Below the pieces are notes generated by a model. That model searched no databases. It was not told the DNA's origin and saw only the letters and a program-made list of their open reading frames with translations. A stretch of DNA of 64,000 nucleotides from Thermodesulfobacteriota bacterium (GTDB lineage Bacteria > Desulfobacterota_D > UBA1144 > Nemesobacterales > Nemesobacteraceae), in assembly GCA_965204795.1 (NCBI GenBank), contig OZ242012.1, forward strand, positions 206,650-270,649, read 5' to 3'. The translations under genes and the position numbers were made by a program. The stretch's first letter is position 1. Each line of letters starts with the position of its first letter. This document shows positions 155 to 64,000 of the stretch, piece after piece.

Positions 155-1672
155 ATGTACGAAAATCCCGCGGTGTTTTCCCTGAAGGACGTGCCGCCCG
201 CCCGGAGGGCGGGGCAGTTCGTCATGCCGAGAGTGGATTTCGCCGACCCCGGGTCGGTCGCGCGGGCGGAGGAGCTCGTGCGGGATTTCGGAGTCTGCGG
301 GTTCATAGTGTTTCGGGGGGAGATGGAAGAAGTGAGGCGGACCGCCGAGAGGCTGAACGCCCTTTCGGATTTCCCGCTTCTTTTCGGCTGCGACGTCGAA
401 AGGGGCCTCGGACAGCAGGTCCGCGGCGCGACTTATTTCCCGTTCGCGATGTCCCAGGGAGCGGCGGACGACCCGGACCTCGTCCGCCGCCAGGCAGCCG
501 CCACGGCGGAGGAGATGAAATACTGCGGTCTCAACCTCGCCTTCGCCCCGGTTCTCGACGTGAATTCCGAGCCCCGAAACCCCATAATAAACGTGAGGGC
601 GTTTTCCGACGACCCGGCCGCGGTTTCGCGCCTGGGCGGAATCTTCGCCGAAACCCTCCAGAAAGAGGGCGTCATGGCGTGCGGAAAGCATTTTCCCGGT
701 CACGGGTCCACGACGCGCGATTCCCATGTCGAGCTTCCGGTGGTCGGAGGATCCCTCCGAAGTCTCATGGAACGCGACGTCGCTCCCTTCCGCGAGGCGG
801 TCGCCAGAAGGCTCTGCTGCGTCATGCCCGCCCACGTCTCGTATCCCGCTCTCGACCCCGACGGGCTTCCCGCCACGCTTTCGTCCCGCATACTGAAGGA
901 CCTTCTTCGGGAAGAGCTGGGATTCGACGGTCTCGTGGTCTCGGATTCCTTCATGATGGACGCTCTCGGGGGAGCGGGCGGCGAGGAGGAGAACATGCTC
1001 GCCGCGATTTCCCGGGGCGTGGACGTGGTTCTCGACCCCAGGGACCCCGCCGGGTTTCTCGAAAGAAACGGGCGGAGCGGGTTTTTCTCCGACCCCGCCC
1101 GGGCGGAGTCCCTGGCCAGGATATTCCGCGCGCGGGGACTTTTCGCCCCGGGCGGGGCGGACGCTCCCGCGCCCGGTCTCGGGCGAAACCGCAAGCTCGC
1201 CGAAGAGATATCGCTACGCTCGGCCTGCCTCCTGCGGGGAGGGCCTCTTCGCGGAGAAAGGACGTTCCTCTGCTGTTTCGGAACCGCGGAGAACTCCGAG
1301 CTTCTCGACGAACTCGCCGCGGCGCTCGAGAGGGGAGGAAAGCGTGTGGAGAAAAGGTTCGCGTTTCCCGAAACCCCCGCCCTTCCCGACGGCGGCTCGC
1401 TTCTCTGCGTGGTTTCGACGGGAGTTTCCGCCTGGACCGAAAACTGCCTCGTTCCCGACGAAGCCGTCTCGTGGATAAACGGGTTTTCCCGCTTTTCGGG
1501 CGAAAAGGCGCTTCTGTGCTTCGGCTCTCCCTATCCCGCGGGGCGCTTCGGCTTTTTCGACGCGGCGGTCGCGCTTTTCGATTCCATGCCTTGCGCCGGC
1601 CGCGCGGCGGCCGAGGTTCTTCTGGGAAAGAGGAGCGCCGCGGCGAAGCTTCCGGTGGACATAGGCCGATGA
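155..1672 (+). CDS. nagZ: beta-N-acetylhexosaminidase, GH3 family (peptidoglycan recycling)
   Basis: 505 aa. GH3 motifs KHFPGHG and GFDGLVVSD are present. Sits immediately downstream of anmK. Confidence 0.88.
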   Translation: MYENPAVFSLKDVPPARRAGQFVMPRVDFADPGSVARAEELVRDFGVCGFIVFRGEMEEVRRTAERLNALSDFPLLFGCDVERGLGQQVRGATYFPFAMSQGAADDPDLVRRQAAATAEEMKYCGLNLAFAPVLDVNSEPRNPIINVRAFSDDPAAVSRLGGIFAETLQKEGVMACGKHFPGHGSTTRDSHVELPVVGGSLRSLMERDVAPFREAVARRLCCVMPAHVSYPALDPDGLPATLSSRILKDLLREELGFDGLVVSDSFMMDALGGAGGEEENMLAAISRGVDVVLDPRDPAGFLERNGRSGFFSDPARAESLARIFRARGLFAPGGADAPAPGLGRNRKLAEEISLRSACLLRGGPLRGERTFLCCFGTAENSELLDELAAALERGGKRVEKRFAFPETPALPDGGSLLCVVSTGVSAWTENCLVPDEAVSWINGFSRFSGEKALLCFGSPYPAGRFGFFDAAVALFDSMPCAGRAAAEVLLGKRSAAAKLPVDIGR

Positions 1673-3408
1673 CCCTTCACTCCGTCGACTGGATTCTCGT
1701 CGGCTGCTACCTGGCCTTCTCCCTCGGGGTCGGGTTCTGGTTCTCGAAAAGGGCGTCGGGAAGCGTCTCCTCCTACTTCGTTTCCGGCAGAAAGCTTCCG
1801 TGGTGGCTTCTCGGAACCTCCATGGTCGCCACCACCTTCGCCGCCGACACTCCTCTCGCCGTGACCGGGTGGATAAGGACCGAGGGGATATGGAAAAACT
1901 GGTTCTGGTGGAACTACGCGCTGAGCCACGCCCTGGTGATAATCGTCTTCTCGAGGCTCTGGAGAAGGGCCGAGGTGGTGACCGACAACGAGCTCATAGA
2001 GCTTCGCTACTCGGGGCGCCCCGCCGCGTTTCTTCGGGGGTTCAAGGCGTTTTACTTCTCGACGGTCTTCAACTTCATAGTCATGGGGTGGGTGATAACC
2101 GCCATGACCAAGGTGTTTTCCGTCTTTTTCGGGGTGGGGCAGATATACGCGGTATGTCTCTGCGTGGGAGTCGTTCTGGTCTACACGGTCTTTTCAGGGC
2201 TATGGGGAGTGGTGGTGACGGATTTCGTCCAGTACGCCGTGGCCCTTTTCGCCACGGCGGCGCTCGCGGTCATAGTGATAAACTCGGACGCCGTCGGGGG
2301 ATACTCGGGGTTTCTCGCGAAAATCGGGGAACTGGACCCCGAAAAAACCTCCATGTTCATATCCCCGCCCGCGGGCGGAGGGGAGTTTTTCTCCTCCGAC
2401 TTTTTCACCTTCGCCGTCTTCATGACCGTGGTCTGGTGGTCTTCCCACAACGCCGACGGCGGCGGCTACTTCATCCAGCGCCTGTGCTCGGCCCGCGACG
2501 AGCGCCACGCGCTTTGGGGAACGGCGTGGTTCGCGCTCAACCACTACGTGCTGCGCTTCTGGCCCTGGGTGCTGGTGGCTCTCGCCTCCGTCGCCGTCTT
2601 TCCCGACGCGTCCCCCGCGGGAGGGGACGAGGAGGCCATGTACCTCGTGATGATAAACGAGTTTCTCTCCCCGGGACTGCGGGGTCTTCTCCTCGTCTCC
2701 TTCCTGGCGGCCTTCATGTCCACGGTGTCCACGCATCTTAACTGGGGAGCCTCCTACCTGGTGAACGACGTGTACGGAAGGTTCGTGCGGAAAAACGCCT
2801 CCCAGGGGCACTACGTGCGCGTCTCGAGAATCGCCACCGTGGTCCTCGCGGTCTGCGCCGGGGCCGTGGCGCTTCGGATAAAAAACATAGGGGACGCGTG
2901 GATATTTCTCTGGGCCATGAGCTCGGGAATAGGACTCGTTTTGATTCTGAGGTGGTTCTGGTGGCGGATAAACGCGTGGAGCGAGATAGCCGCCCTGGGC
3001 TCCTCGCTTCTCACCATGACGGTGCTGGTCCTCTACACCGGGGCCGCGGGGACGCCGCTTGAGCTCCGCCACCAGATACTGGTCGTCCCGGTGTCGATAG
3101 CCTGCTGGGTGGCGGCCACCTTTCTCACCGCCCCCGAGCCCGCCGAGAAGCTCCGCGCCTTCTGCGAGAGGGTGAGGCCCCCCGGGTTCTGGTCCCCTGT
3201 GCGCCCCCCGGCGGGCGCGGCGAAAGGGGGAACGGGCTTCGGGAAAATCGTCGCGAACTGGCTTCTGGCGGCGTCCTTTCTTCTGTGCCTCATGCTCGGG
3301 ACGGGAAAGCTGCTTCTGGGCGAAACGGCCTCCGCTCTCGGTCTTCTCGCGGCCGCCGCCCTGGGGCTCGTCGCCATCGTCGTCCGCCGCCGCGGTTTTT
3401 TCCTCTAG
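1669..3408 (+). CDS. sodium:solute symporter (SSS) family transporter
   Basis: ATG at 1669 overlaps the nagZ stop (ATGA). The product MTLHSVDWILVGCYLAFSLGVGFWFSKRASGSVSSYFVSGRKLPWWLLGTSM... has about 13 hydrophobic helices and SSS-family N-terminal signatures. The 679-start ORF in the track is an upstream R-rich artefact of the same frame. Confidence 0.8.
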   Translation: MTLHSVDWILVGCYLAFSLGVGFWFSKRASGSVSSYFVSGRKLPWWLLGTSMVATTFAADTPLAVTGWIRTEGIWKNWFWWNYALSHALVIIVFSRLWRRAEVVTDNELIELRYSGRPAAFLRGFKAFYFSTVFNFIVMGWVITAMTKVFSVFFGVGQIYAVCLCVGVVLVYTVFSGLWGVVVTDFVQYAVALFATAALAVIVINSDAVGGYSGFLAKIGELDPEKTSMFISPPAGGGEFFSSDFFTFAVFMTVVWWSSHNADGGGYFIQRLCSARDERHALWGTAWFALNHYVLRFWPWVLVALASVAVFPDASPAGGDEEAMYLVMINEFLSPGLRGLLLVSFLAAFMSTVSTHLNWGASYLVNDVYGRFVRKNASQGHYVRVSRIATVVLAVCAGAVALRIKNIGDAWIFLWAMSSGIGLVLILRWFWWRINAWSEIAALGSSLLTMTVLVLYTGAAGTPLELRHQILVVPVSIACWVAATFLTAPEPAEKLRAFCERVRPPGFWSPVRPPAGAAKGGTGFGKIVANWLLAASFLLCLMLGTGKLLLGETASALGLLAAAALGLVAIVVRRRGFFL

Positions 3409-9580: not shown

Positions 9581-10711
9581 ATGAGCAGGACCGCCTACCT
9601 CATAATCGATTCGAGCGAAGCCAACTCGGACCTTTACCACAGAACGGGATTCTTCGTTCCGGACCCCGTCATATTCTTCGAACGCGACGGAAAGACCACG
9701 CTCGTTCTGAGCGACCTCGAGCTTGAAAGGGGCGAAAAGCGGGGCGCCGCCGACGAGATAGTCTCCTTCTCGCGCTGCGTCGCCGGGCTTCGCGGCAAGG
9801 GAAACAGGTCTCCCTCGACGGCGGAGGTCGCCGCCGCGGTTCTTCAGGAAAGGGGAATAAGAAGCCTCGTCGTCCAGAGAACCTTTCCCGTCTTTTTCGC
9901 CGACGCTCTCCGCGAGGCCGGTTTTTCCGTGAAGACCGCGAAGACGCATTTTCTTTTCGAGGACCGTCTCGTAAAATCCCCCCGGGAGGTCTCGTTCATA
10001 AAAAAGGCGCTTTCCGTCACGGCGCAGGCGATGAGACGCGCGGTCTCGCTCGTCTCGTCCTCGACTCCGAAGGGAGGACTTCTTTTTCTCGGGAAAAAGC
10101 CTCTCACCTCCGAGACGGTGAGGTCGGAAATCGACTCCTTTCTCGCCGCCCGGGGCTACCTCGCCTCGAACACCATAGTGGCGGGAGGGGTTCAGGGCTC
10201 GATGCCCCACGAGAAGGGCTCGGGACCGCTTCGGGCCGGGTGGCCCGTCGTGATGGACATATTTCCCCGCTCCCAGGAAAACGGCTACTTCGGCGACATG
10301 ACGAGAACCGTGGTCAGGGGGGAGCCTTCGCGGGAGCTTCTGCGGATGTACGACGCGGTGCTCGGGGGTCAGAAAACGGCGCTTTCGATGATAAGGGACG
10401 GCGCGAGGTCGAGGGACGTGCACGCGGCGGTGGAAGAGTTTTTCTCCGGGCGGGGTTTCGAAACGGGAGTTTCGGACTCGGGAAAGCCCCGGGGGTTCAT
10501 TCACTCCACCGGACACGGCCTCGGCCTCGACATCCACGAGCCGCCGAGGATTGGTCCGGGAAAGGAGATTCTCAGGGAGGGAAACGTCGTCACGGTGGAG
10601 CCCGGGCTTTACTACGAGAGTCTCGGGGGAGTGAGGATAGAGGACGTGGTGGTGGTCGGGCGCGGGGGGTGCGTTAACCTCACGAGATGCTCGAAGAGAT
10701 TCAGGGTGTAG
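9581..10711 (+). CDS. M24 family Xaa-Pro aminopeptidase / dipeptidase
   Basis: 376 aa. The pita-bread-fold metal ligands fall in the contexts ...GDMTRTV..., ...[13 protein letters not shown]... and ...VVTVEPGLY...GGVRIED. Confidence 0.85.
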
Positions 10712-11505: not shown

Positions 11506-12336
11506 CTAGAAACTCAGGCGCAAGCCCATGTCGAACGCGTGAAAGGGCTTTGCGGTCACGGAGACGGGCGCGGTCAGTCTTTCCGCGGCGAGGGCCAGAT
11601 TCAGGGAAGGCATGTGGACGAAGCGGTAGCCCGCCTGAAGCGCGAGGGACGGGGACAGGCGGAATCCGGCTCCCGCCTGAAGCTGCCAGATAAAGCCCCA
11701 CCGGTCGCTGGCTTTGTGGAACACTTTCGCCGGGGCGGTGTTCTGCTCGAGAGCCTCTCTGAGGTGGTCCAGATCTTCGAGAGGGGCTTCCGCCCTGGTC
11801 CTTATGTCGAGGTGAAACGTGCCGTGGACCGTCCCGGCGCCCGCTCCCACGTAAGGGCGAAACGCCCCGCCGACCGGAACGTCCCAGTAGGCGTTGACCA
11901 TGCCGGCCCAGACATCGAGGCGGCCCGAATCCCGGATGTCGCTCCCCGTGCTCGCCGACTGCTCGGGCGTGAGAGGAATGTTTCTGCCCCGCGCGTCCAG
12001 AAAACGGTGCGTGCGTACGATGCGGTCTATGCCCGCGCGCTGCCAGAACGCCTCGGTCTCGATTCTGAAGTCCCCTACGCGTCTGCCCGCGGCGAGCGCC
12101 GCTCCCCAGCCGGTTTTGAACTTCACGTCGGCGAGAAGATCGATCCTGGTGTTCGAGAATATCCCGTAGGGCATCGCGAGGTCGGCTTTTTCCGCGAGGG
12201 AGACGCCCCCGCGTCCCGACACGTACCAGTTTTTCTCCTCGCTTTCCCGAGCGGCCGCCGGGAACGCGGCCGCCAGGCACAGAAACACGGCGCACAGAAC
12301 CGCGGTCCGCGCGCCCGTAGGCGACGTTTTATTCAT
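11506..12336 (-). CDS. outer-membrane beta-barrel protein (OmpW/OmpA-like beta-barrel domain) with signal peptide
   Basis: The signal peptide is MNKTSPTGARTAVLCAVFLCLAAAFPAAA. The body has alternating hydrophobic beta-strand periodicity and ends in the aromatic residue ...GLRLSF. Confidence 0.7.
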   Translation of the reverse strand: MNKTSPTGARTAVLCAVFLCLAAAFPAAARESEEKNWYVSGRGGVSLAEKADLAMPYGIFSNTRIDLLADVKFKTGWGAALAAGRRVGDFRIETEAFWQRAGIDRIVRTHRFLDARGRNIPLTPEQSASTGSDIRDSGRLDVWAGMVNAYWDVPVGGAFRPYVGAGAGTVHGTFHLDIRTRAEAPLEDLDHLREALEQNTAPAKVFHKASDRWGFIWQLQAGAGFRLSPSLALQAGYRFVHMPSLNLALAAERLTAPVSVTAKPFHAFDMGLRLSF

Positions 12337-28967: not shown

Positions 28968-30292
28968 TTTCCTATGAGAACTATTCCTATGTCCATCACG
29001 TTGGTTCCCGTGCTGCCGGTCTTTACCAGGTCTCCCAGCTTCTCGAAAAAAGTGTAGGAATCGTTGTCGGCGAGATGGTCCCTCGCGCTTATCCCCATGG
29101 CCCTGGCCGCCAGGCGCGACTGCCCGTCGCACACTGCTCCGGCGGCGTCTGTGGGGCCGTCTATGCCGTCGGTTCCGGCGAAAAGCCCCACCATGTCGCT
29201 CGTCCCTATTATCTCGAAGCAGAACGAAAGGGCGGTCTCGGTGTTTCTCCCCCCCCTGCCCCTGCCGAGCACGTTCACCGTGGTCTCCCCTCCGAAAAGT
29301 ATGCAGGCGGGCTTTTCGACGGGCCGGCCGAACCTGCGGACGTCGAAGCAGATTCCGGCGAGCGCCTTGGCCACCTCCCTGGCCTCCCCCGAGATCTGGG
29401 AGGAGAGAAAGAGGGTGTTGTACCCCATCTGCGCCGCCGCCGTCTCGGCCGACGCTATGGCCTTGCGGTTGCTTCCGACGACGACGGTCACGGCCCCGCT
29501 TTCGAGAAACCTCTCGCGCGTTATGTGGTCGGGAATCTCGTTTCTTCTTCCCTTCTCCAGGTGCACGACCACCCTCGGGGGAATCCTGTGCTCGAGCCCG
29601 AGCGCCTCGATCACTCGCCACGCGTCCTCGAACGTCGTGGTGTCGGGAACCGTGGGACCCGAGGCTATGAACTCCGGGCGGTCTCCGACCACGTCCGACA
29701 GAATCAGGGTGACCACCCGGGAGGGAAGGGCCTTTTCGAGAAGTCCCCCGCCCTTTATCCGCGACATCTTCTTTCTCACGGTGTTGAGGCCGTAGGTGTC
29801 CACCCCGGAGAGCATGAGCTTTTCCGTGACGGCCCGCTTGTCCTCTACGGTGAGTCCCTCGCGCGGCATGGCGAGCATGGAGCTTCCGCCCCCGGAGATC
29901 AGGAATATCACCAGGTCCCGCTTCCCCGACTTTTCTAGAAGGGAGACGGCTTTTTCGGCGGCCGCCACGCTTCTTTCGTCCGGCGCGGGATGGGAGGAGA
30001 GGTGAAACTCCATCCTGCGGAAGGGGGTTTCGGGTTCGACGTTCGAGACCACGAGTCCCCGCGTCACGAAGTCTCCGAGAAGCTCCTCGAGCGCCCCGGC
30101 CATGGCCGGGGCCGCCTTTCCGAACGCGACCGCGTACACCGACTCGAAATCCTCGAGATCGAAGACGGCGTCGGCGACGAAAAGCCTGCTTCCCCGAAGC
30201 TCGAGACGCTCGAGGACGCATTTTCTCGGGTCGGCCTCCTCCAGCGCCCTGTCGAAAAGCTCCCTGGCGTCCTTTCTCAGTTTCTCTCGCAT
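28964..30292 (-). CDS. glycerate kinase (MOFRL / GckA-TtuD family)
   Basis: 443 aa. ...VAFGKAAPAMA...ISGGGSSMLAMP...VGSNRKA...LFGGETTVNVLG.GRGGRNTE are MOFRL family motifs. Confidence 0.82.
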   Translation of the reverse strand: MREKLRKDARELFDRALEEADPRKCVLERLELRGSRLFVADAVFDLEDFESVYAVAFGKAAPAMAGALEELLGDFVTRGLVVSNVEPETPFRRMEFHLSSHPAPDERSVAAAEKAVSLLEKSGKRDLVIFLISGGGSSMLAMPREGLTVEDKRAVTEKLMLSGVDTYGLNTVRKKMSRIKGGGLLEKALPSRVVTLILSDVVGDRPEFIASGPTVPDTTTFEDAWRVIEALGLEHRIPPRVVVHLEKGRRNEIPDHITRERFLESGAVTVVVGSNRKAIASAETAAAQMGYNTLFLSSQISGEAREVAKALAGICFDVRRFGRPVEKPACILFGGETTVNVLGRGRGGRNTETALSFCFEIIGTSDMVGLFAGTDGIDGPTDAAGAVCDGQSRLAARAMGISARDHLADNDSYTFFEKLGDLVKTGSTGTNVMDIGIVLIGK

Positions 30293-57258: not shown

Positions 57259-57656
57259 CTGGCTGGGAACGATGATTGTATACGCGCCGCGGGGGTTTTC
57301 AAGCTGCGCACGCCCCGGGCCGAAGACGGCCGACGCTCCCGGAGACTCGGCAGCTTCGCGGAGGCCGGCCGGCGTTTCCCGCCGCTCCCGCGCGCCGCGA
57401 ACGTCCCGGTTCGGCTCGGGAAACGCGGAAAATCGAAAATTCGAGAAAATTCCCCGCGCCGTCCCGCGCCCGACATGGTATGCTTGGAGCTGTGCGGACG
57501 AAGCATCGGCGCGCCTCGGAGGGGATGTCCCGGCCGCCGGCCCCGGTGGATGCAAGACGGACGGATATGGCGGCCGCGCCGACCGCGTTCGGCATTGACG
57601 TTTCCTAGCGCTCGGGGTCTCGGGCGGTTCTTAACGAGAGGGGAACGGAAGAAGCG

Positions 57657-57752
57657 ATGGCAGTTCGTCGTCCGCATCCCGGGTCCGAAACGCGAAGGGG
57701 AACGGTACGGGAAATCGTCAGGTTTCTGAAACACTTGGGGGTAGAGCCGTGA
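57657..57752 (+). pseudogene. hicA: hicA-like toxin remnant (31 codons; N-terminal fragment only)
   Basis: MAVRRPHPGSETRRGTVREIVRFLKHLGVEP* has REIVRFLKHLGV, which resembles the HicA N-terminal helix (E. coli SEFRRWLESQGV). It is truncated by a TGA that overlaps the hicB GTG start. Full HicA is about 60 aa. Confidence 0.4.
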
Positions 57753-58081
57753 TTGAATACAAGGGATACGTCGGCATGGTCGAATTTGACGATTACGCGG
57801 GGTGTTTTCATGGAAGAGTGGTGAACGGCGGTCCCTATTCGGTCGTCACTTTTGAAGCGACCGACGCGGAAGGAGTTCAGCGTGAATTCCGCCGGTCGAT
57901 CGACGAGTATCTTGCCTGGTGCGAAGAAGAGGGCGTTGAGCCCGGGAAGCCTCGTTCGGGCAAGCTCGACATCCGGCTCGATTCGGACCTGCATCGCAGA
58001 GTTCTGCTCTCGGCGGAAAAAAGCGGCATGAGCCTAAACGGCTGGATTGCGCAGGCCCTGGAGAAAAGCGTCTCCTGCTGA
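57749..58081 (+). CDS. hicB: HicB-family antitoxin (HicB N-domain plus C-terminal RHH/CopG-like tail)
   Basis: IEYKGYVGMVEFDDYAGCFHGRVVNGGPYSVVTFEATDAEGVQREFRRSIDEYLAWCEEEG..PGKPRSGK...RVLLSAEKSGMSLNGWIAQALEKS has a HicB-typical N-terminal domain and a C-terminal DNA-binding tail. Confidence 0.8.
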   Translation: MIEYKGYVGMVEFDDYAGCFHGRVVNGGPYSVVTFEATDAEGVQREFRRSIDEYLAWCEEEGVEPGKPRSGKLDIRLDSDLHRRVLLSAEKSGMSLNGWIAQALEKSVSC

Positions 58082-58316
58082 CTCCGCCCGCTCCGCCGGT
58101 TTCCGTTTCGCAGACGCGTTCCGCTCCCGCGGAAGCCGGTACCGGCCGTGGAGGGAACCGTTTGGTTTTACTGAGAATTGGACCTTGTTGCCCGCGGGGT
58201 CTCACGTTGACTGGTCCACTTCCGGTCCTTTTGCAAGTACCCGCCGAGTCCGTCGGACTTAATGAAAAACTGAGCAACGAGACATCACTGCGCCGGACCG
58301 TCAATTCCGGCGGTTT

Positions 58317-59473: not shown

Positions 59474-60285
59474 GAAAGACGTGTTTCATAGGAGCGGGAA
59501 ACATGGCGGAGGCCCTCGTGAGGGGTCTTCTGGCCTCGGGGCGCTTCGGGAAAAAGGACATGGCGGTCTGCGACGTGAATCCCGGGAGGCTTTCGCTGTT
59601 TTCTTCCGAGTACGGAATCGCGGGCGACGGGGACGCGAGAAGCGTCGTCGCCGCCTCCGACGTCGTGGTCTTCTGCGTCAAGCCCGGGGTCGTTCCGGCG
59701 GTCTGCCGGCGGATACGGCCCGCCGCGGGAAAGAAGAAGCTCTACGTCTCCATAGCCGCCGGTGTGAGGATGTCTTCCGTTCTTCGGCTTCTGGGAGAGG
59801 GAACGAAGCTCGCGCGGGTCATGCCCAACGCCCCCGCCCTTTCGCTTTCGGGAGCGTCGTGCGTGTGCTTCGGCGAGGGGCTTTCCGCCGGGGAGGAGGA
59901 TTTCGTGCTCGGCATGTTCGGGTGCCTTGGAAAGGCGTTTCGGGTGGAGAGCGAGGAACTGATGGACGCCGTCACGGGTCTCGGCGGAAGCGGTCCCGCG
60001 TTCGTCGCGACGTTCGTCGAGGCCCTTTGCGACGGAGGGGTGAAGGCGGGGCTCGGGCGGGAGCTATCGCTCGCCCTTGCCCTGCAGACGGTTCTCGGAA
60101 CCTCGAGGATGATTCTCGAAAGCGGAGCGCACCCGGCCGAGATAAGGGACATGGTCGCCTCTCCGGGGGGGACCACCATGAGCGGAATGCATTCGCTCGA
60201 GCGGGGAGGATTCCGCGCCGCGGTGATGTCCGCCGTGGAGTCGGCGGCGCTTCGCTCCGCGGAACTTTCCGCGGGGGAGGACTGA
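59470..60285 (+). CDS. proC: pyrroline-5-carboxylate reductase
   Basis: ATG overlaps the yggS stop. Rossmann motif CFIGAGNMAEAL. C-terminal dimerisation-domain motifs are present. Confidence 0.88.
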   Translation: MRKTCFIGAGNMAEALVRGLLASGRFGKKDMAVCDVNPGRLSLFSSEYGIAGDGDARSVVAASDVVVFCVKPGVVPAVCRRIRPAAGKKKLYVSIAAGVRMSSVLRLLGEGTKLARVMPNAPALSLSGASCVCFGEGLSAGEEDFVLGMFGCLGKAFRVESEELMDAVTGLGGSGPAFVATFVEALCDGGVKAGLGRELSLALALQTVLGTSRMILESGAHPAEIRDMVASPGGTTMSGMHSLERGGFRAAVMSAVESAALRSAELSAGED

Positions 60286-60287
60286 CG

Positions 60288-60587
60288 ATGGACGTACTTG
60301 GAGGAAACTTCATCAGGGCCGCGGCCGAAGCGTTGAACATTCTGCTGTCGGTCTACATATGGCTGATAGTGGGAAGGGCGGTGATCTCGTGGGTGAGTCC
60401 CGATCCCTACAATCCGATCGTTAGGTTTCTCTACTCGGCCACCGAACCCGTGCTGGGCTTCGCGAGAAAGCGCCTGCCGCCCCTGGGCGGAACGCTCGAC
60501 CTGAGCCCCGTGGTGGTCCTGGTCCTGATAATCTTCGTGAAGCGCGCGGTCGTGACCTCGCTCGTTCAGCTGGCCTCGGGACTCTGA
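60288..60587 (+). CDS. yggT: YggT-family membrane protein
   Basis: 99 aa with two TM helices (LNILLSVYIWLIVGRAVISWV and SPVVVLVLIIFVKRAVV). The yggS-proC-yggT order is conserved. Confidence 0.8.
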   Translation: MDVLGGNFIRAAAEALNILLSVYIWLIVGRAVISWVSPDPYNPIVRFLYSATEPVLGFARKRLPPLGGTLDLSPVVVLVLIIFVKRAVVTSLVQLASGL

Positions 60588-60861
60588 ACCGCGTTCCTCG
60601 CTTCCGCCGCCGCCCGGAAGATTGACGCGCGGATATTCTTCAATCATGCCGGAGAACCGGAGCCGGCCGCGGCGCGTTCTGGTTCCCCGGGCGCGGGCCG
60701 TCGCGTCCGCGGGACGCGGAAGCCGGTGTCGGCGTATATTTCCGGGGAGGGGGGAGTCTTGACGAGCCGGTCGGTCGGGGATAGTCTTTTCCCTGTACGG
60801 ACGAGAAGGAATTATCGAGGAGCCCCGGCCCGGATTCGACCGGAGCGCGGGCGCGAGAGAA

Positions 60862-63800
60862 ATGAACGACCTCGGACGCAAGGAAAACCCGCATGATACC
60901 CCCCCCCCCCTATTTCGTTCCGGTAGAGCGGGGCTTTCCCGCTTTTCCGCGCGGGCGTTCCTGCTGATACTGGTTCTGGCCGGAGCGCTTTTTCCCGCGC
61001 AGCGGATTTTCTCCCAGACGGCTCCGAACCCGTCGGTGTGGAAAGACGGGATTACCCAGGGGGCCGATTCTACGCTTATCGATACCGAGTTTCTTTTCGC
61101 CGTCCAGACGCCCCAGACCGTCGTTTTTCGCCGGACCAACGTTCGTGAAGCGTGGCAGTATATTGCGATCCACGCCTGCGGAGACACGAAGGTGAAGCCC
61201 CCGAACCCGGCGCAAAGCATCCCGAGCAACTTCAGCAACTGCTCGCTGCTGATCAGCGGCGTCCCCACCGGCAGCCTCGAGTATACGAGGTCCTTCACTC
61301 CGACCGCGGCCATGATCGCAAACGGCGGGGTCGTGTTCGCGTTCCGCGCGATAGGCCAGCAGAGACCGGCGTTTCTGGTGAAGTGGGTTCCGGTGGTCGG
61401 CGCGGCGATAACCTCGACGAATCCCGTCTCCCTGTCGGAGTCGAACATAGACGGCGCGACGGTTACGGTGAAGATCGGCACGAGTTACGCGGCGGCCGGG
61501 AGCCTGGACAAAAACGACTTCGAACTCGCCAGGGCTCCCGCGGGAGTGACCGTAAGCTCGGCCGAGAGAAAAAGCGCGACCGAGGCGGTGCTGACGCTCG
61601 CTTACGACGACGGGAGCGATTTCGACGCGGCGGCGAAGCTAAGCGTCAGGGTGAAGGCGTCGGGACATTCGGGCTCGGGCGATTTTACGTCGGGGGAGGT
61701 GGACGTGGCCGCGGTGGTGGAGACGAGGCCTGCCCGTCCGACGGGACTTACGGCGACGGCGGCGAACCTGAGCGCGGTTCTCGGGTGGACGGACCCTTCG
61801 GACGCGACGATAACGGGCTGGGAGTACCGTCGCAAGCTTGCGAGCGCTTCGAACTACGGTCCCTGGACGCCGATGACCGGAAGCGGGGCGGCGACCGCCT
61901 CTTACACGGTGGGCGGGCTCAGCAACGATCTCGCTTACGATTTCCAGGTAAGGGCGGTGAACTCGCGGGCGCCGACGGAAGCGTCGCCGGCCAGCGCGAA
62001 GGCTTCGGCGACGCCGGTTGCGGCCGCGGCACCGACTTCCACGGAGTGGAGATACGGCCAGAATATCCAGCATTTCTGTCATAATGCGGTGTTCTACAGC
62101 GTACCGACGACGTCGCTTCTGCCCTCCGCGACCCCGCAGACCGTCACGTTCCACCTTAGACAAGTAATCGTCCGCTTCACCTGGCCGAGCCTTGAGCTTT
62201 ACGCGTGTCCCTGGACGTCGGCCACTCCGGCGGGCGATACGTCCGTCCGCCCGACCGGCTGCCAGAAACTGAAGGACCTCTGGGCAACCAGCAACTCCAG
62301 GGACTGGTCGGTCAATTTCACTCCGACGCAGGCGATGATAAGCAACGGCGGGGCGGTGATGCTCTCGTACTGCTTCAACTCGGGATTCCATGCTGCCAGA
62401 CGGATTATGCACACCAAGTGGGTGCCCATGACCGACGGCGCGTCGATAACGGGCACCGGCCCGGCGACGCTGGGGGAGGGGAACCTAAACGCCGCGACGG
62501 TCACGGTGGACCTTACCGGCCTCACCTTCCTGGCGGGAGTGGCGGCGGGAGACTTCGAGCTTTCGGGAGTTCCCGCGGGGGTGACCGTTTCGGTGCAGTC
62601 GGCCACGCGCCTCGCGGCCACCGACCAGGCCAGGCTCACGCTGTCTTACGGAGGGGAGGACTACGACTCGGATTTTTCGCTGGAGATAAAGGCCAAGGCG
62701 AGCGGACACACGGGCTCGGCCGACCTCCTAGCGGGGACGGTCCTGGTGGCCGCGACGGAGGAGACGGCCGCGATAACGGCCCAGAGCGCGGACCCCCTGA
62801 CGGAGGCGAACGTGGGCGGCGCCACGGTTACGGTTACGCTTTCGGGGGAGACCTACGTCACGTCGGGTTTCGGCAAGGAAGATTTCGAGCTCGCGAGCGC
62901 GCCTTCGGGCGTGACGATAAGCACGGCCGCGAGGAGTTCGGCGACGGCGGCTGTGCTCACGCTCGCTTACGACAGCACGGATTTCGATTCGGACGCGAAA
63001 CTGGGCGTGCGGGTTCTCGCGGCCGGCCACTCGGGGCCGGAGAACCTCGAGACCGGGGAGATAGACGTGGAGGCGGTAGTGGAGGCTCTGTCGGCTCCGA
63101 CGGGTTTTTCCGCGCTCGCGGGAGACGGCCGGGCGGGGCTCAGCTGGACCGACCCGAACAACGCGGCGATAGAGGGCTACGAGTACCAGAGGAGGAATTC
63201 GGGCGACGGCTGGCCGGGAACGTGGACGGCGATTCCGGGGAGCGGGGCCGGGACGACTTCGTACACGGTGACGGGTCTTTCGAACAACCAGGCGTACGAT
63301 TTTAGGATAAGGTCGACCAGCTCGAAGGCGACGGCGTCCGCGGCGAGCGCCGCGGCGTCGGCCACGCCTTCGGCCATGTCGGCGGCGATAACTTCGCAGA
63401 GCGTTGACCCCCTCACGGAGACGAACGTGGGCGGCGCCACGGTTACCGTGACGCTCACGGGCACGACGTACGCGGCGGCGGGGAGTTTCGACAAGGACGA
63501 TTTCGCTCTCGCTAGCGCGCCGCCCGGGGTGACGATAGGCACGGCGGCCAGAAGTTCGGCGACGGCGGCGGTGCTGACGCTCGCTTACGACGGCACGGAT
63601 TTCGACGCGACCGAGCAGATCGGGGTGCGGGTCAAGGCGTCGGGGCACTCGGGCGCGGGGGATCTCGAGACCGGGGAGATAGACGTGAACGCGGTCGTGG
63701 AGGAGGCTCCCGGGAAGCCTTCGGGCCTGAGGGCGGAGCCCAGGGACAGTCACGTGGTGCTGAAGTGGAACGACCCGGGGGATTCGACGATAACGGGCTA

Positions 63801-64000
63801 CCAGTACCGCGCGTTCTACGACGGCGAAAGCAGCTGGCGGGCCTGGGCGGCGATTTCGGGGAGCGGGGCGACCACCACGCAGTTCACGCAGAATCTCTAC
63901 TCGAACGCGAGGGGCGTGAGATACCAGATAAGGGCTTTGCGGGCCAAGGCCCCTCCGTCCGCGGCGAGCGTCGAGGTGCACGCCCATCCCGCCGCCGTCT
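60862..64000 (+). CDS. very large secreted repeat-module surface protein with fibronectin-type-III domains (3' end beyond window)
   Basis: Open frame from ATG 60862 to the window end, with no stops, over 1045 codons. The predicted signal peptide is ...RAFLLILVLAGALFPAQR. Two paralogous roughly 150-aa Cys-pair domains are present. There are at least four roughly 105-aa repeat modules (..DPLTE.NVGGATVTVTL.G.TY...G.F.K.DFEL..AP.GVTI..A.RSSATAAVLTLAYD..DFD...K.GVRV.A.GHSG...L..GEIDV.AVVE), each followed by an FN3 domain (..L.GWTDP.D..I.GYEYR......W.....SG..TTSYTV.GLSN..AYDF.IRA). It is absent from the ORF track because no stop lies in the window. Confidence 0.8.
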   Translation, partial: MNDLGRKENPHDTPPPLFRSGRAGLSRFSARAFLLILVLAGALFPAQRIFSQTAPNPSVWKDGITQGADSTLIDTEFLFAVQTPQTVVFRRTNVREAWQYIAIHACGDTKVKPPNPAQSIPSNFSNCSLLISGVPTGSLEYTRSFTPTAAMIANGGVVFAFRAIGQQRPAFLVKWVPVVGAAITSTNPVSLSESNIDGATVTVKIGTSYAAAGSLDKNDFELARAPAGVTVSSAERKSATEAVLTLAYDDGSDFDAAAKLSVRVKASGHSGSGDFTSGEVDVAAVVETRPARPTGLTATAANLSAVLGWTDPSDATITGWEYRRKLASASNYGPWTPMTGSGAATASYTVGGLSNDLAYDFQVRAVNSRAPTEASPASAKASATPVAAAAPTSTEWRYGQNIQHFCHNAVFYSVPTTSLLPSATPQTVTFHLRQVIVRFTWPSLELYACPWTSATPAGDTSVRPTGCQKLKDLWATSNSRDWSVNFTPTQAMISNGGAVMLSYCFNSGFHAARRIMHTKWVPMTDGASITGTGPATLGEGNLNAATVTVDLTGLTFLAGVAAGDFELSGVPAGVTVSVQSATRLAATDQARLTLSYGGEDYDSDFSLEIKAKASGHTGSADLLAGTVLVAATEETAAITAQSADPLTEANVGGATVTVTLSGETYVTSGFGKEDFELASAPSGVTISTAARSSATAAVLTLAYDSTDFDSDAKLGVRVLAAGHSGPENLETGEIDVEAVVEALSAPTGFSALAGDGRAGLSWTDPNNAAIEGYEYQRRNSGDGWPGTWTAIPGSGAGTTSYTVTGLSNNQAYDFRIRSTSSKATASAASAAASATPSAMSAAITSQSVDPLTETNVGGATVTVTLTGTTYAAAGSFDKDDFALASAPPGVTIGTAARSSATAAVLTLAYDGTDFDATEQIGVRVKASGHSGAGDLETGEIDVNAVVEEAPGKPSGLRAEPRDSHVVLKWNDPGDSTITGYQYRAFYDGESSWRAWAAISGSGATTTQFTQNLYSNARGVRYQIRALRAKAPPSAASVEVHAHPAAV
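60899..60910 (+). repeat. homopolymeric tract C12 inside the 5' coding region of the large surface-protein gene (candidate slipped-strand phase-variation site)
   Basis: Twelve consecutive C at 60899-60910. In the current state it encodes T-P-P-P-L, in frame with ATG 60862. With 13 C, the ATG at 60893, which has an AAGGAAA RBS 6 nt upstream, comes into frame instead. Confidence 0.9.
61440..63720 (+). repeat. divergent intragenic coding repeats (about 300-nt module units alternating with FN3 units) within the surface-protein gene
   Basis: Recurring nucleotide blocks such as acggtcacggtg / acggttacggt(g/t)ac(g)ct and gtgctgacgctcgcttacgacg occur at roughly 61450/61590, 62500/62640, 62810/62950 and 63420/63560. 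Confidence 0.75.

Follow-up and report, generated by a model that had tools for sequence, protein, structure and literature searches.

A variable poly-C tract between two start codons and the signal peptide of a giant surface-protein gene: a probable translational contingency switch in a Thermodesulfobacteriota bacterium

The DNA analysed here, a stretch of 64,000 nt from contig OZ242012.1 of a Thermodesulfobacteriota bacterium (hereafter the window), ends within a gene for a giant surface protein. Close to the 5′ end of this gene lies an uninterrupted run of exactly 12 cytosines (C12). Two start codons precede the run, and the hydrophobic core of the predicted signal peptide of this putatively secreted protein is encoded 3′ of it. 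From the comparison of this tract with its counterparts in related sequences, we consider it probable, at roughly 70%, that C12 is a simple-sequence contingency switch acting at translation. The reading frame that opens at the upstream start codon, ATG1, is free of stop codons up to the window end (1046 codons), in agreement with an earlier sequence-only reading of the same DNA, which had put the frame at more than 1045 aa. The signal peptide has a basic n-region, which contains the tract, and a 13-residue h-region, AFLLILVLAGALF, delimited by eye. Its cleavage site was placed, also by eye, between RIFS and QTAPNP, and the family alignments show a conserved site of the type A-x-A followed by QT(T/A)PNP. 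The signal peptide is followed by a family-defining N-terminal domain (N-domain), of which a second copy, with the motifs ACPWTS, TPTQAMISNGG and KWVP, is found at 62044-62440 (~aa 395-525). The region 3′ of the N-domain is made up of ~100-aa repeated modules and FN3 domains (Pfam fn3, 3.5e-18). The neighbouring genes on the 5′ side are yggS, proC and yggT.

No other homopolymer of the window approaches the length of C12. The runner-up length across the 64 kb is 8, reached by A8 twice and by C8 once, and C/G runs of 4, 5, 6, 7 and 8 were counted 511, 140, 31, 5 and 1 times, respectively, before the single run of 12. At a G+C content of 61.5%, the number of runs of 12 or more expected in the window from a first-order Markov model is ~0.06 for any base and ~0.05 for C or G. 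The C12 tract is real and well above chance. Its first C lies 37 nt into the large open reading frame (ORF); the sequence-only reading had given about 40 nt and had noted that long perfect homopolymers are otherwise absent, and both statements hold. Hypermutability of G/C homopolymers is associated with perfect tracts of roughly 8 or more, and C12 is a perfect tract of the length seen in simple-sequence-repeat (SSR) contingency loci. The C8 at 29249-29256 is the only other C/G run to reach 8 in the window; the runs of 7 include a G7 at 60165-60171.

The position of the tract relative to the start codons gives its length a direct bearing on translation. The second start codon, ATG2, follows ATG1 at a distance of 31 nt, which places the two in different frames. 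In the window sequence, the interval from the tract to the signal-peptide hydrophobic core offers no in-frame ATG, GTG or TTG, so that the start must lie 5′ of the tract. The tract was replaced in silico by C6 to C16 in the window, and the frame logic was simulated also for two related loci, L001 and L005, which are described below. In these simulations, tract lengths of n = 0 mod 3 (C9, C12, C15) join ATG1 to the large ORF and lengths of n = 1 mod 3 (C7, C10, C13) join ATG2 to it, while at n = 2 mod 3 (C8, C11, C14) neither ATG is joined and both frames are closed after 8 to 43 codons. Gain or loss of a single C changes which start, if any, reaches the large ORF. The arrangement is that of the licA type, in which two start codons in different frames lie 5′ of the repeat. 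The product joined to ATG1 at C12 has a long n-region, MNDLGRKENPHDTPPPLF..., and the N-terminal peptide MNDLGRKENPHDTPPPLFR; the product joined to ATG2 at C13 would begin MIPPPPLF..., with the N-terminal peptide MIPPPPLFR. The sequence-only reading had predicted that 13 C would bring the second ATG into frame and that 11 C would leave neither start in frame, and the simulation bears out both predictions. Its remark that ATG2 has the better Shine-Dalgarno (SD) sequence, AAGGAAA at 6-nt spacing, was likewise verified.

Four further copies of this arrangement were found. We refer to it as a cassette, consisting of a promoter-like element, ATG1, 31 nt, ATG2 in CATGAT, poly-C and signal peptide. 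The five cassettes are those of the window, L005, L001, and the plus-strand and minus-strand copies of L006 (Table 1). A scan of contigs contributed one true relative, L001, and the matches confined to FN3 domains (L002 to L004) were left out. L005 is syntenic with the window (hisG, aroA, prmC, yggS, proC, yggT), and its protein is 76% identical. L001, which belongs to a Thermodesulfobacteriota metagenome-assembled genome (MAG) and is the closest named relative of the window, encodes a product of ~67% amino acid identity to the window protein, with flanks of ~68% nucleotide identity. CATGAT is invariant in all five cassettes, and in all five ATG1 is located 31 nt 5′ of ATG2 free of indels, while the untranslated region (UTR) just upstream does contain indels. 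The SD sequence of ATG1 is weak in every copy. At the SD site of ATG2, a purine-rich AAGGA or AGGGA is present in L001, L005 and the L006 plus-strand copy; the site is poor in the L006 minus-strand copy.

The tract occupies the same place in the five homologous cassettes but differs in length (12, 10, 10, 8 and C6T6), the comparison being one between species and paralogs rather than between strains of one species. The lengths differ by non-multiples of three, and the ATG1 frame, the ATG2 frame and the OFF frame, in which neither start is joined, are all represented. The sequence-only reading had proposed a slipped-strand switch and had named relatives without the homopolymer as grounds for abandoning the idea. 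The relatives in fact keep the tract and vary its length, which supports the proposal at the level of sequence comparison. L001 is of particular value here. Its C8 leaves both starts out of frame, yet the large frame stays open for more than 3140 codons (9.4 kb), to the end of the fetched DNA, so that this OFF allele retains its ORF as would be expected of a reversible OFF state and not of a pseudogene. In 12.4 kb of L001, homopolymers of at least 8 occur just twice, and both are within the leader: a G10 and the C8, at 1,011,305-1,011,314 and 1,011,459-1,011,466 of OZ251569.1, respectively. The L006 plus-strand copy adjoins an IS110 transposase gene, carries a ~30-aa internal deletion and is truncated; that the tract is interrupted in this decaying copy alone would fit selection for an uninterrupted tract that lasts only as long as the gene is used. 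Three relatives of giant size, P0025, P0026 and P0037, have N-termini of the form M..(H/Y)DTPPL and were called from the ATG1-equivalent start. Their tracts would be C9 if the proline codons are CCC; for these proteins, as for P0039, P0046 and the RRGGGP clade, tract length was deduced from the protein sequence only. A tract that is conserved in place and variable in length, together with an OFF allele whose ORF is intact, is by sequence comparison the signature of a contingency locus. A scan of JGI metagenomes with the leader pattern GCATGATRCCCCCCN{0,16}TATTTCRTYC gave 0 matches.

Table 1. Positions of the features of the window and of the poly-C tracts at related loci, each in the coordinates of its own sequence.
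Feature	Location	Strand	Remarks
Giant surface-protein gene, 5′ 3.1 kb	60862..64000	+	open frame past window end; FN3 domains and ~100-aa repeats
ATG1, upstream start	60862-60864	+	in frame with large ORF at C12; weak SD, GAGAG
SD-like AAGGAAA	60880-60886	+	6 nt 5′ of ATG2
ATG2, second start	60893-60895	+	+1 frame relative to ATG1; inside CATGAT
C12 homopolymer, window cassette	60899-60910	+	putative hypermutable element, read from sequence; homologous tracts in relatives; ATG1 in frame
Signal-peptide coding region	60862..61014	+	translation and family alignments, by eye
Family-defining N-domain	61015..61431	+	~140 aa, after signal peptide; predicted Ig-like beta-sandwich
Promoter-like element, TTGACG (60759-60764), 17-nt spacer, TAGTCT (60782-60787)	60759..60787	+	conservation only
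G-rich run GGGGAGGGGGG	60744..60754	+	G4AG6; directly 5′ of -35-like hexamer (TCTTGAC)
L005 (ENA scaffold), C10	10007-10016		ATG2 in frame; P0001 begins MIPPPLFRSG
L001 (OZ251569.1, Thermodesulfobacteriota MAG chromosome), C8	2958-2965		neither ATG in frame
L006 plus-strand copy, C6T6	1184-1195	+	neither ATG in frame
L006 paralog, C10	3099-3090	-	ATG2 at 3105, in frame; product begins MIPPPQSGSRTRAGLSRLASYAFLL
Sister clade L007 and L008, C10	4038-4047 (L007)
Sister clade L014 (4.18-Mb contig), C13	1466-1478
Sister clade L012 and L013, C14	1537-1550 (L012)
Sister clade L010, C14	304-317
Sister clade L009, C15	1065-1079
Sister clade L011, C16	401-416
Sister clade L015, C8TC4	1466-1473
Sister clade L016, C29	520-548

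When aa 1-190 of the gene product were searched exhaustively with phmmer against 1.84 billion representative proteins, only 23 relatives were returned, several of them giants, with 5703 aa in P0025 and 5633 aa in P0026. With P0026 the window protein shares 58% identity across 473 aa. P0026 carries Calx-beta domains at its C-terminus, and its N-domain is internal only, not directly after the signal peptide. Its C-terminus matches the Autotransporter beta-domain PF03797 with 21.1 bits, below the 26-bit cut-off, and the C-termini of P0025, P0026, P0037, P0039 and P0046 all read ...QGRLNW. The assignment of the gene product as a giant surface protein is well supported. From the features of its relatives it is likely an autotransporter, an assignment that is unproven since the C-terminus of the window protein lies beyond the window end, and a role in adhesion or phage-receptor variation is plausible. 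An exact look-up of the window YggT product for other assemblies of the same strain gave no record, and a scan with a protein pattern from the family alignment gave 0 confirmed matches. A word-index homolog search with aa 1-190 came back empty although P0001 is 76% identical, which reflects a limitation of the index and not biology.

A profile search revealed, in addition, a clade of small proteins of 131-200 aa, composed of a signal peptide and the same N-domain and encoded in a conserved fabF-fabH-X-thuA neighbourhood. Three of these sister-clade loci, L009, L010 and L011, come from three samples and have near-identical flanks and an identical 172-aa product. When sequences of 90% identity or more are clustered, the number of prolines is all that distinguishes the N-termini within a cluster, PPP versus PPPP, with one variant of 8 P. 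Judged from these sequences, length differences of such size cannot be assembly noise. Just 3′ of the sister-clade tract there is a TTG start with a strong SD sequence, GGAGGAG, and gene callers alternate between forms of ~196 aa and 172 aa according to tract length. As the sequences read, the sister-clade tract probably toggles an N-terminal extension or an upstream ORF rather than gating the gene outright. Another clade (P0027, P0031, P0032, P0034, P0035, P0040, P0044) has ..FPRRGGGPSRVPARAVLLLL.. (GGG or GGGG) in the n-region, versus PPP in the window clade; P0040 is interrupted there (RRCAGP), and P0044 looks frame-shifted at this point. The GGG-bearing clade may represent a poly-G counterpart of the putative switch.

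The leader upstream of ATG1 is conserved as well. The promoter-like element is designated as such from its conservation and is not a mapped promoter. A -35-like TTGAC(G/A) is found in the window and in three of the four related cassettes; in L005 the promoter region is an assembly gap (N run 9794-9892). The 17-nt spacer and a TAG-type -10 are present in the window (TAGTCT), L001 (TAGCCT) and the L006 plus-strand copy (TAGTTG), while in the L006 minus-strand copy no TAG-type -10 was recognisable at 17-nt spacing. The element escaped a generic sigma-70 scan on account of its weak -10. At the site of the G-rich run of the window, L001 has an uninterrupted G10 (2804-2813) and the minus-strand paralog of L006 has GGGGAGAGGG (3231-3222). 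The G-rich run may be a second hypermutable repeat, acting at the promoter level. It should be mentioned that the N run of L005 falls exactly at the G-run site, as if the assembly had broken there. Further upstream, a non-coding block of ~120 nt with the sequence GATTGACGCGCGGATATTCTTCAATCATG...CTGGTTCCCCGGGCGCGG...GGAAGCCGG is common to the window (60617-60740) and L001 (2655-2780), and parts of it are seen again in the minus-strand copy of L006; Rfam contains no match to it. The genes upstream of the block differ, yggT in the window versus an unrelated gene in L001. The block, being conserved in spite of these different upstream genes, appears to travel with the cassette, and it might serve as the binding region of a regulator or encode a small RNA.

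Some other features of the related loci were observed. In L006 (386-952, 1147-2408 and 3136-2400 on the minus strand), the two cassette-bearing paralogs converge beside the IS110-family transposase gene, and the minus-strand copy is interrupted after 61 codons by an in-frame stop, beyond which it goes on in frame into FN3 and the N-domain. L005 shows the loss of 1 nt in a short G run at ~11530-11545 (TGGGTG in the window versus AGGTG), which splits the product into 514 and 1097+ aa and is either an assembly error or a real disruption. A hicA-hicB toxin-antitoxin pair lies between prmC and yggS at L005 7198-7670, for comparison with window ~57560-58300.

Taken together, these observations suggest the following mechanism. 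Slipped-strand mispairing at replication would change n by +/-1 at high frequency; in Neisseria, Haemophilus and Campylobacter, G/C runs of 8 or more are known to slip at high rates. Any clonal population would in consequence be a permanent mixture of cells that make the ATG1 protein, probably at a lower level, cells that make the ATG2 protein and cells free of the protein. The better SD sequence of ATG2 would give higher expression than that of ATG1, resulting in high, low and off states as in licA. The window allele, C12, would correspond to the ATG1 state. At n = 2 mod 3, translation would yield nothing beyond peptides of 8-43 codons, and the adhesin would be switched off. Host recognition, phage or grazer selection would subsequently act on this standing variation. 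As several paralogous giant genes of this lineage would be under the control of the same cassette, they could each be switched independently of one another. By what can be read from its sequence, the window gene has the four testable properties of the SSR contingency class.

Several considerations weigh against this proposal. The evidence consists of comparisons between assemblies rather than of read heterogeneity within one population, and the five cassettes represent separate species or paralogs rather than strains of a single species. Homopolymers of 8-16 are error-prone in short- and long-read assemblies alike, so that single +/-1 differences could be technical, and the internal 1-nt frameshift of L005 lowers the trust in that assembly. 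Use of ATG1 is deduced in spite of its weak SD sequence, and the window allele could be low or OFF. The TTG start 3′ of the sister-clade tract implies that the tract may modulate expression there and not gate it, and throughout the family its role may be other than that of a simple ON/OFF switch. Expression, surface location and the function as an adhesin are deduced from the domains of the protein.

Among the alternatives, the one that survives best is a switch with two states, in which ATG2 is the only real start and ATG1 either opens a short ORF of its own upstream or has arisen by chance. On this view the C12 allele would be silent or nearly so, and the ON state would need C13 or C10. The better SD sequence of ATG2 (AAGGAAA at 6-nt spacing), the invariance of CATGAT, the weakness of the ATG1 SD sequence in every copy and the ATG2 frame of the L005 and L006 minus-strand copies all agree with it. 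However, ATG1 is kept in 5/5 cassettes at exactly 31 nt, indel-free beside a UTR that does have indels, and three independent giant relatives (P0025, P0026 and P0037) are in the ATG1-type frame. In addition, licA provides an example of a design in actual use with starts in two frames. We therefore regard the ATG2-only scheme as unlikely, although it deserves to be kept in mind.

A second alternative dispenses with switching altogether. The tract would merely encode a tolerated poly-proline linker in the n-region, and out-of-frame lengths would be assembly errors. Errors in homopolymer length are indeed common in assemblies, L005 contains another 1-nt frameshift, and the ON-state products all carry PP to PPPP. 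Nevertheless, the codons are always CCC, where CCG, CCA or CCT would serve equally, and the run is pure in 4/5 cassettes and at most sister-clade loci. The lengths of 8-12 among the cassettes and of 10-29 in the sister clade are far beyond a +/-1 error, and the variable proline count (2, 3, 4, 5, 6, 8) bears no sign of a fixed requirement. A linker of this kind is, in our judgement, quite improbable.

Correction at the RNA level has also been considered, by which polymerase slippage or ribosomal frameshifting on the C run would make expression constitutive and tract length would set its level. Transcription is prone to slip on long homopolymers, and consecutive proline codons cause ribosomes to stall. 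Such correction would explain the intact ORF of the out-of-frame L001 equally well. Against it, the predicted fold of the leader and tract RNA is not more stable than that of shuffled sequence (z = +1.31), which leaves a riboswitch or a frameshift-stimulating structure without support, and a search of 60300-61100 against Rfam gave no accepted match. A candidate Moco-II element on the opposite strand of the same interval was dismissed as a sub-threshold Rfam match (E = 0.55). Transcriptional slippage is best documented for A/T runs, which speaks against this alternative too, and the conservation of two ATGs in two frames would be left unexplained. As the sole explanation, RNA-level correction thus has only a slim chance of being right; it may also operate in addition to DNA-level switching. 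Finally, that C12 is an assembly or polishing artefact of the window, for which the general caveat on homopolymers can be cited but nothing specific, is hardly credible, since four other cassettes, drawn from three independent assemblies, have a homopolymer at the corresponding position, as do eight sister-clade loci, contrary to the assembly error that the sequence-only reading had raised.

Homopolymer contingency loci of the kind proposed here are textbook knowledge in host-adapted pathogens such as Neisseria, Haemophilus, Campylobacter and Helicobacter; to our knowledge there is hardly any record of them from uncultivated lineages, environmental or symbiotic. If switching is real, populations would be mixed for their largest adhesins, with a bearing on host recognition, evasion of phagocytosis and phage resistance, and the switch would be directly testable on existing metagenomic reads. 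It would also explain why such genes are annotated in MAGs as truncated, N-terminally shortened or pseudogenes, examples of which are the P0002 call, the sister-clade 172-aa calls and the assembly gap at the L005 promoter. A broader and more tentative proposal, which we would place below even odds, is that a portable 5′ module (G-run promoter, ATGs in two frames, poly-C and signal peptide) equips the Ig-like N-domain family throughout the lineage, giant and small members alike, and provides each gene with a switch of three states (isoform A, isoform B and OFF) in uncultivated, probably sponge-associated bacteria. The ENA scaffold prefix PANK22-1, as we suspect, denotes re-assembled sponge metagenomes. 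'Eukaryote-like' proteins with FN3, Calx-beta and Ig-like domains are thought to mediate the contact between symbiont and host. If the portable module is true, no contingency-locus system would have been described before it from symbionts of marine invertebrates, and the eukaryote-like adhesins that symbiont populations present to the host would be in constant variation. A search of the literature yielded no account of homopolymer phase variation in connection with sponge symbionts, which is weak evidence of absence.

We have compared the window gene with known phase-variable systems. Homopolymers between promoter elements, or between an activator site and the -10, are known from Bordetella fim and Neisseria porA/opc. 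The G-run (G10 in L001, G4AG6 in the window) is a possible parallel, but it is located 5′ of the -35-like hexamer. In the Neisseria opa genes (CTCTT) and the outer-membrane protein genes of Helicobacter pylori (CT), the repeats lie in the signal-peptide region and paralogs switch independently. The cassette resembles these families in being common to at least two L006 paralogs and to orthologs, while the penta- or dinucleotide units and the small beta-barrel outer-membrane proteins of opa and H. pylori are unlike the window gene.

The closest parallels in tract composition and in start-codon design come from three systems, licA, nalP/ausI and nanH3, none of which has sequence homology to the window gene. 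In the sialidase gene nanH3 of Gardnerella, 8 to 14 C are found ~100 nt into the ORF, with C9 and C12 in frame; tract length differs from strain to strain and also inside one strain, and automated annotation is led astray by it (bioRxiv 10.1101/2020.09.16.300947). As in nanH3, the poly-C of the window is beside the signal-peptide coding region of a cell-surface protein. The nanH3 tract, however, follows the signal peptide and has one ON frame, in a Gram-positive human commensal, whereas the window tract precedes the hydrophobic core. The nalP and ausI (mspA) genes of Neisseria meningitidis are autotransporter genes with poly-C tracts (PMC5472700). The relatives of the window protein may similarly end in an autotransporter-like beta-barrel, by a match below the Pfam threshold; nalP and ausI encode ~1000-aa proteases with a single start, in contrast to the giant passenger of FN3, Calx-beta and Ig-like domains and the two starts of the window gene. 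In licA (lic1) of Haemophilus influenzae, starts in two of the three frames lie 5′ of a CAAT repeat (PMC2212159). As in the window gene, that repeat is just inside the 5′ end of the ORF, and two classes of repeat number are ON through different starts and one is OFF, although the licA repeat is a tetranucleotide and its product a cytoplasmic choline kinase. The proposed switch is thus of a known kind, and its added interest is that the cassette is common to a family of giant and small surface proteins in uncultivated bacteria.

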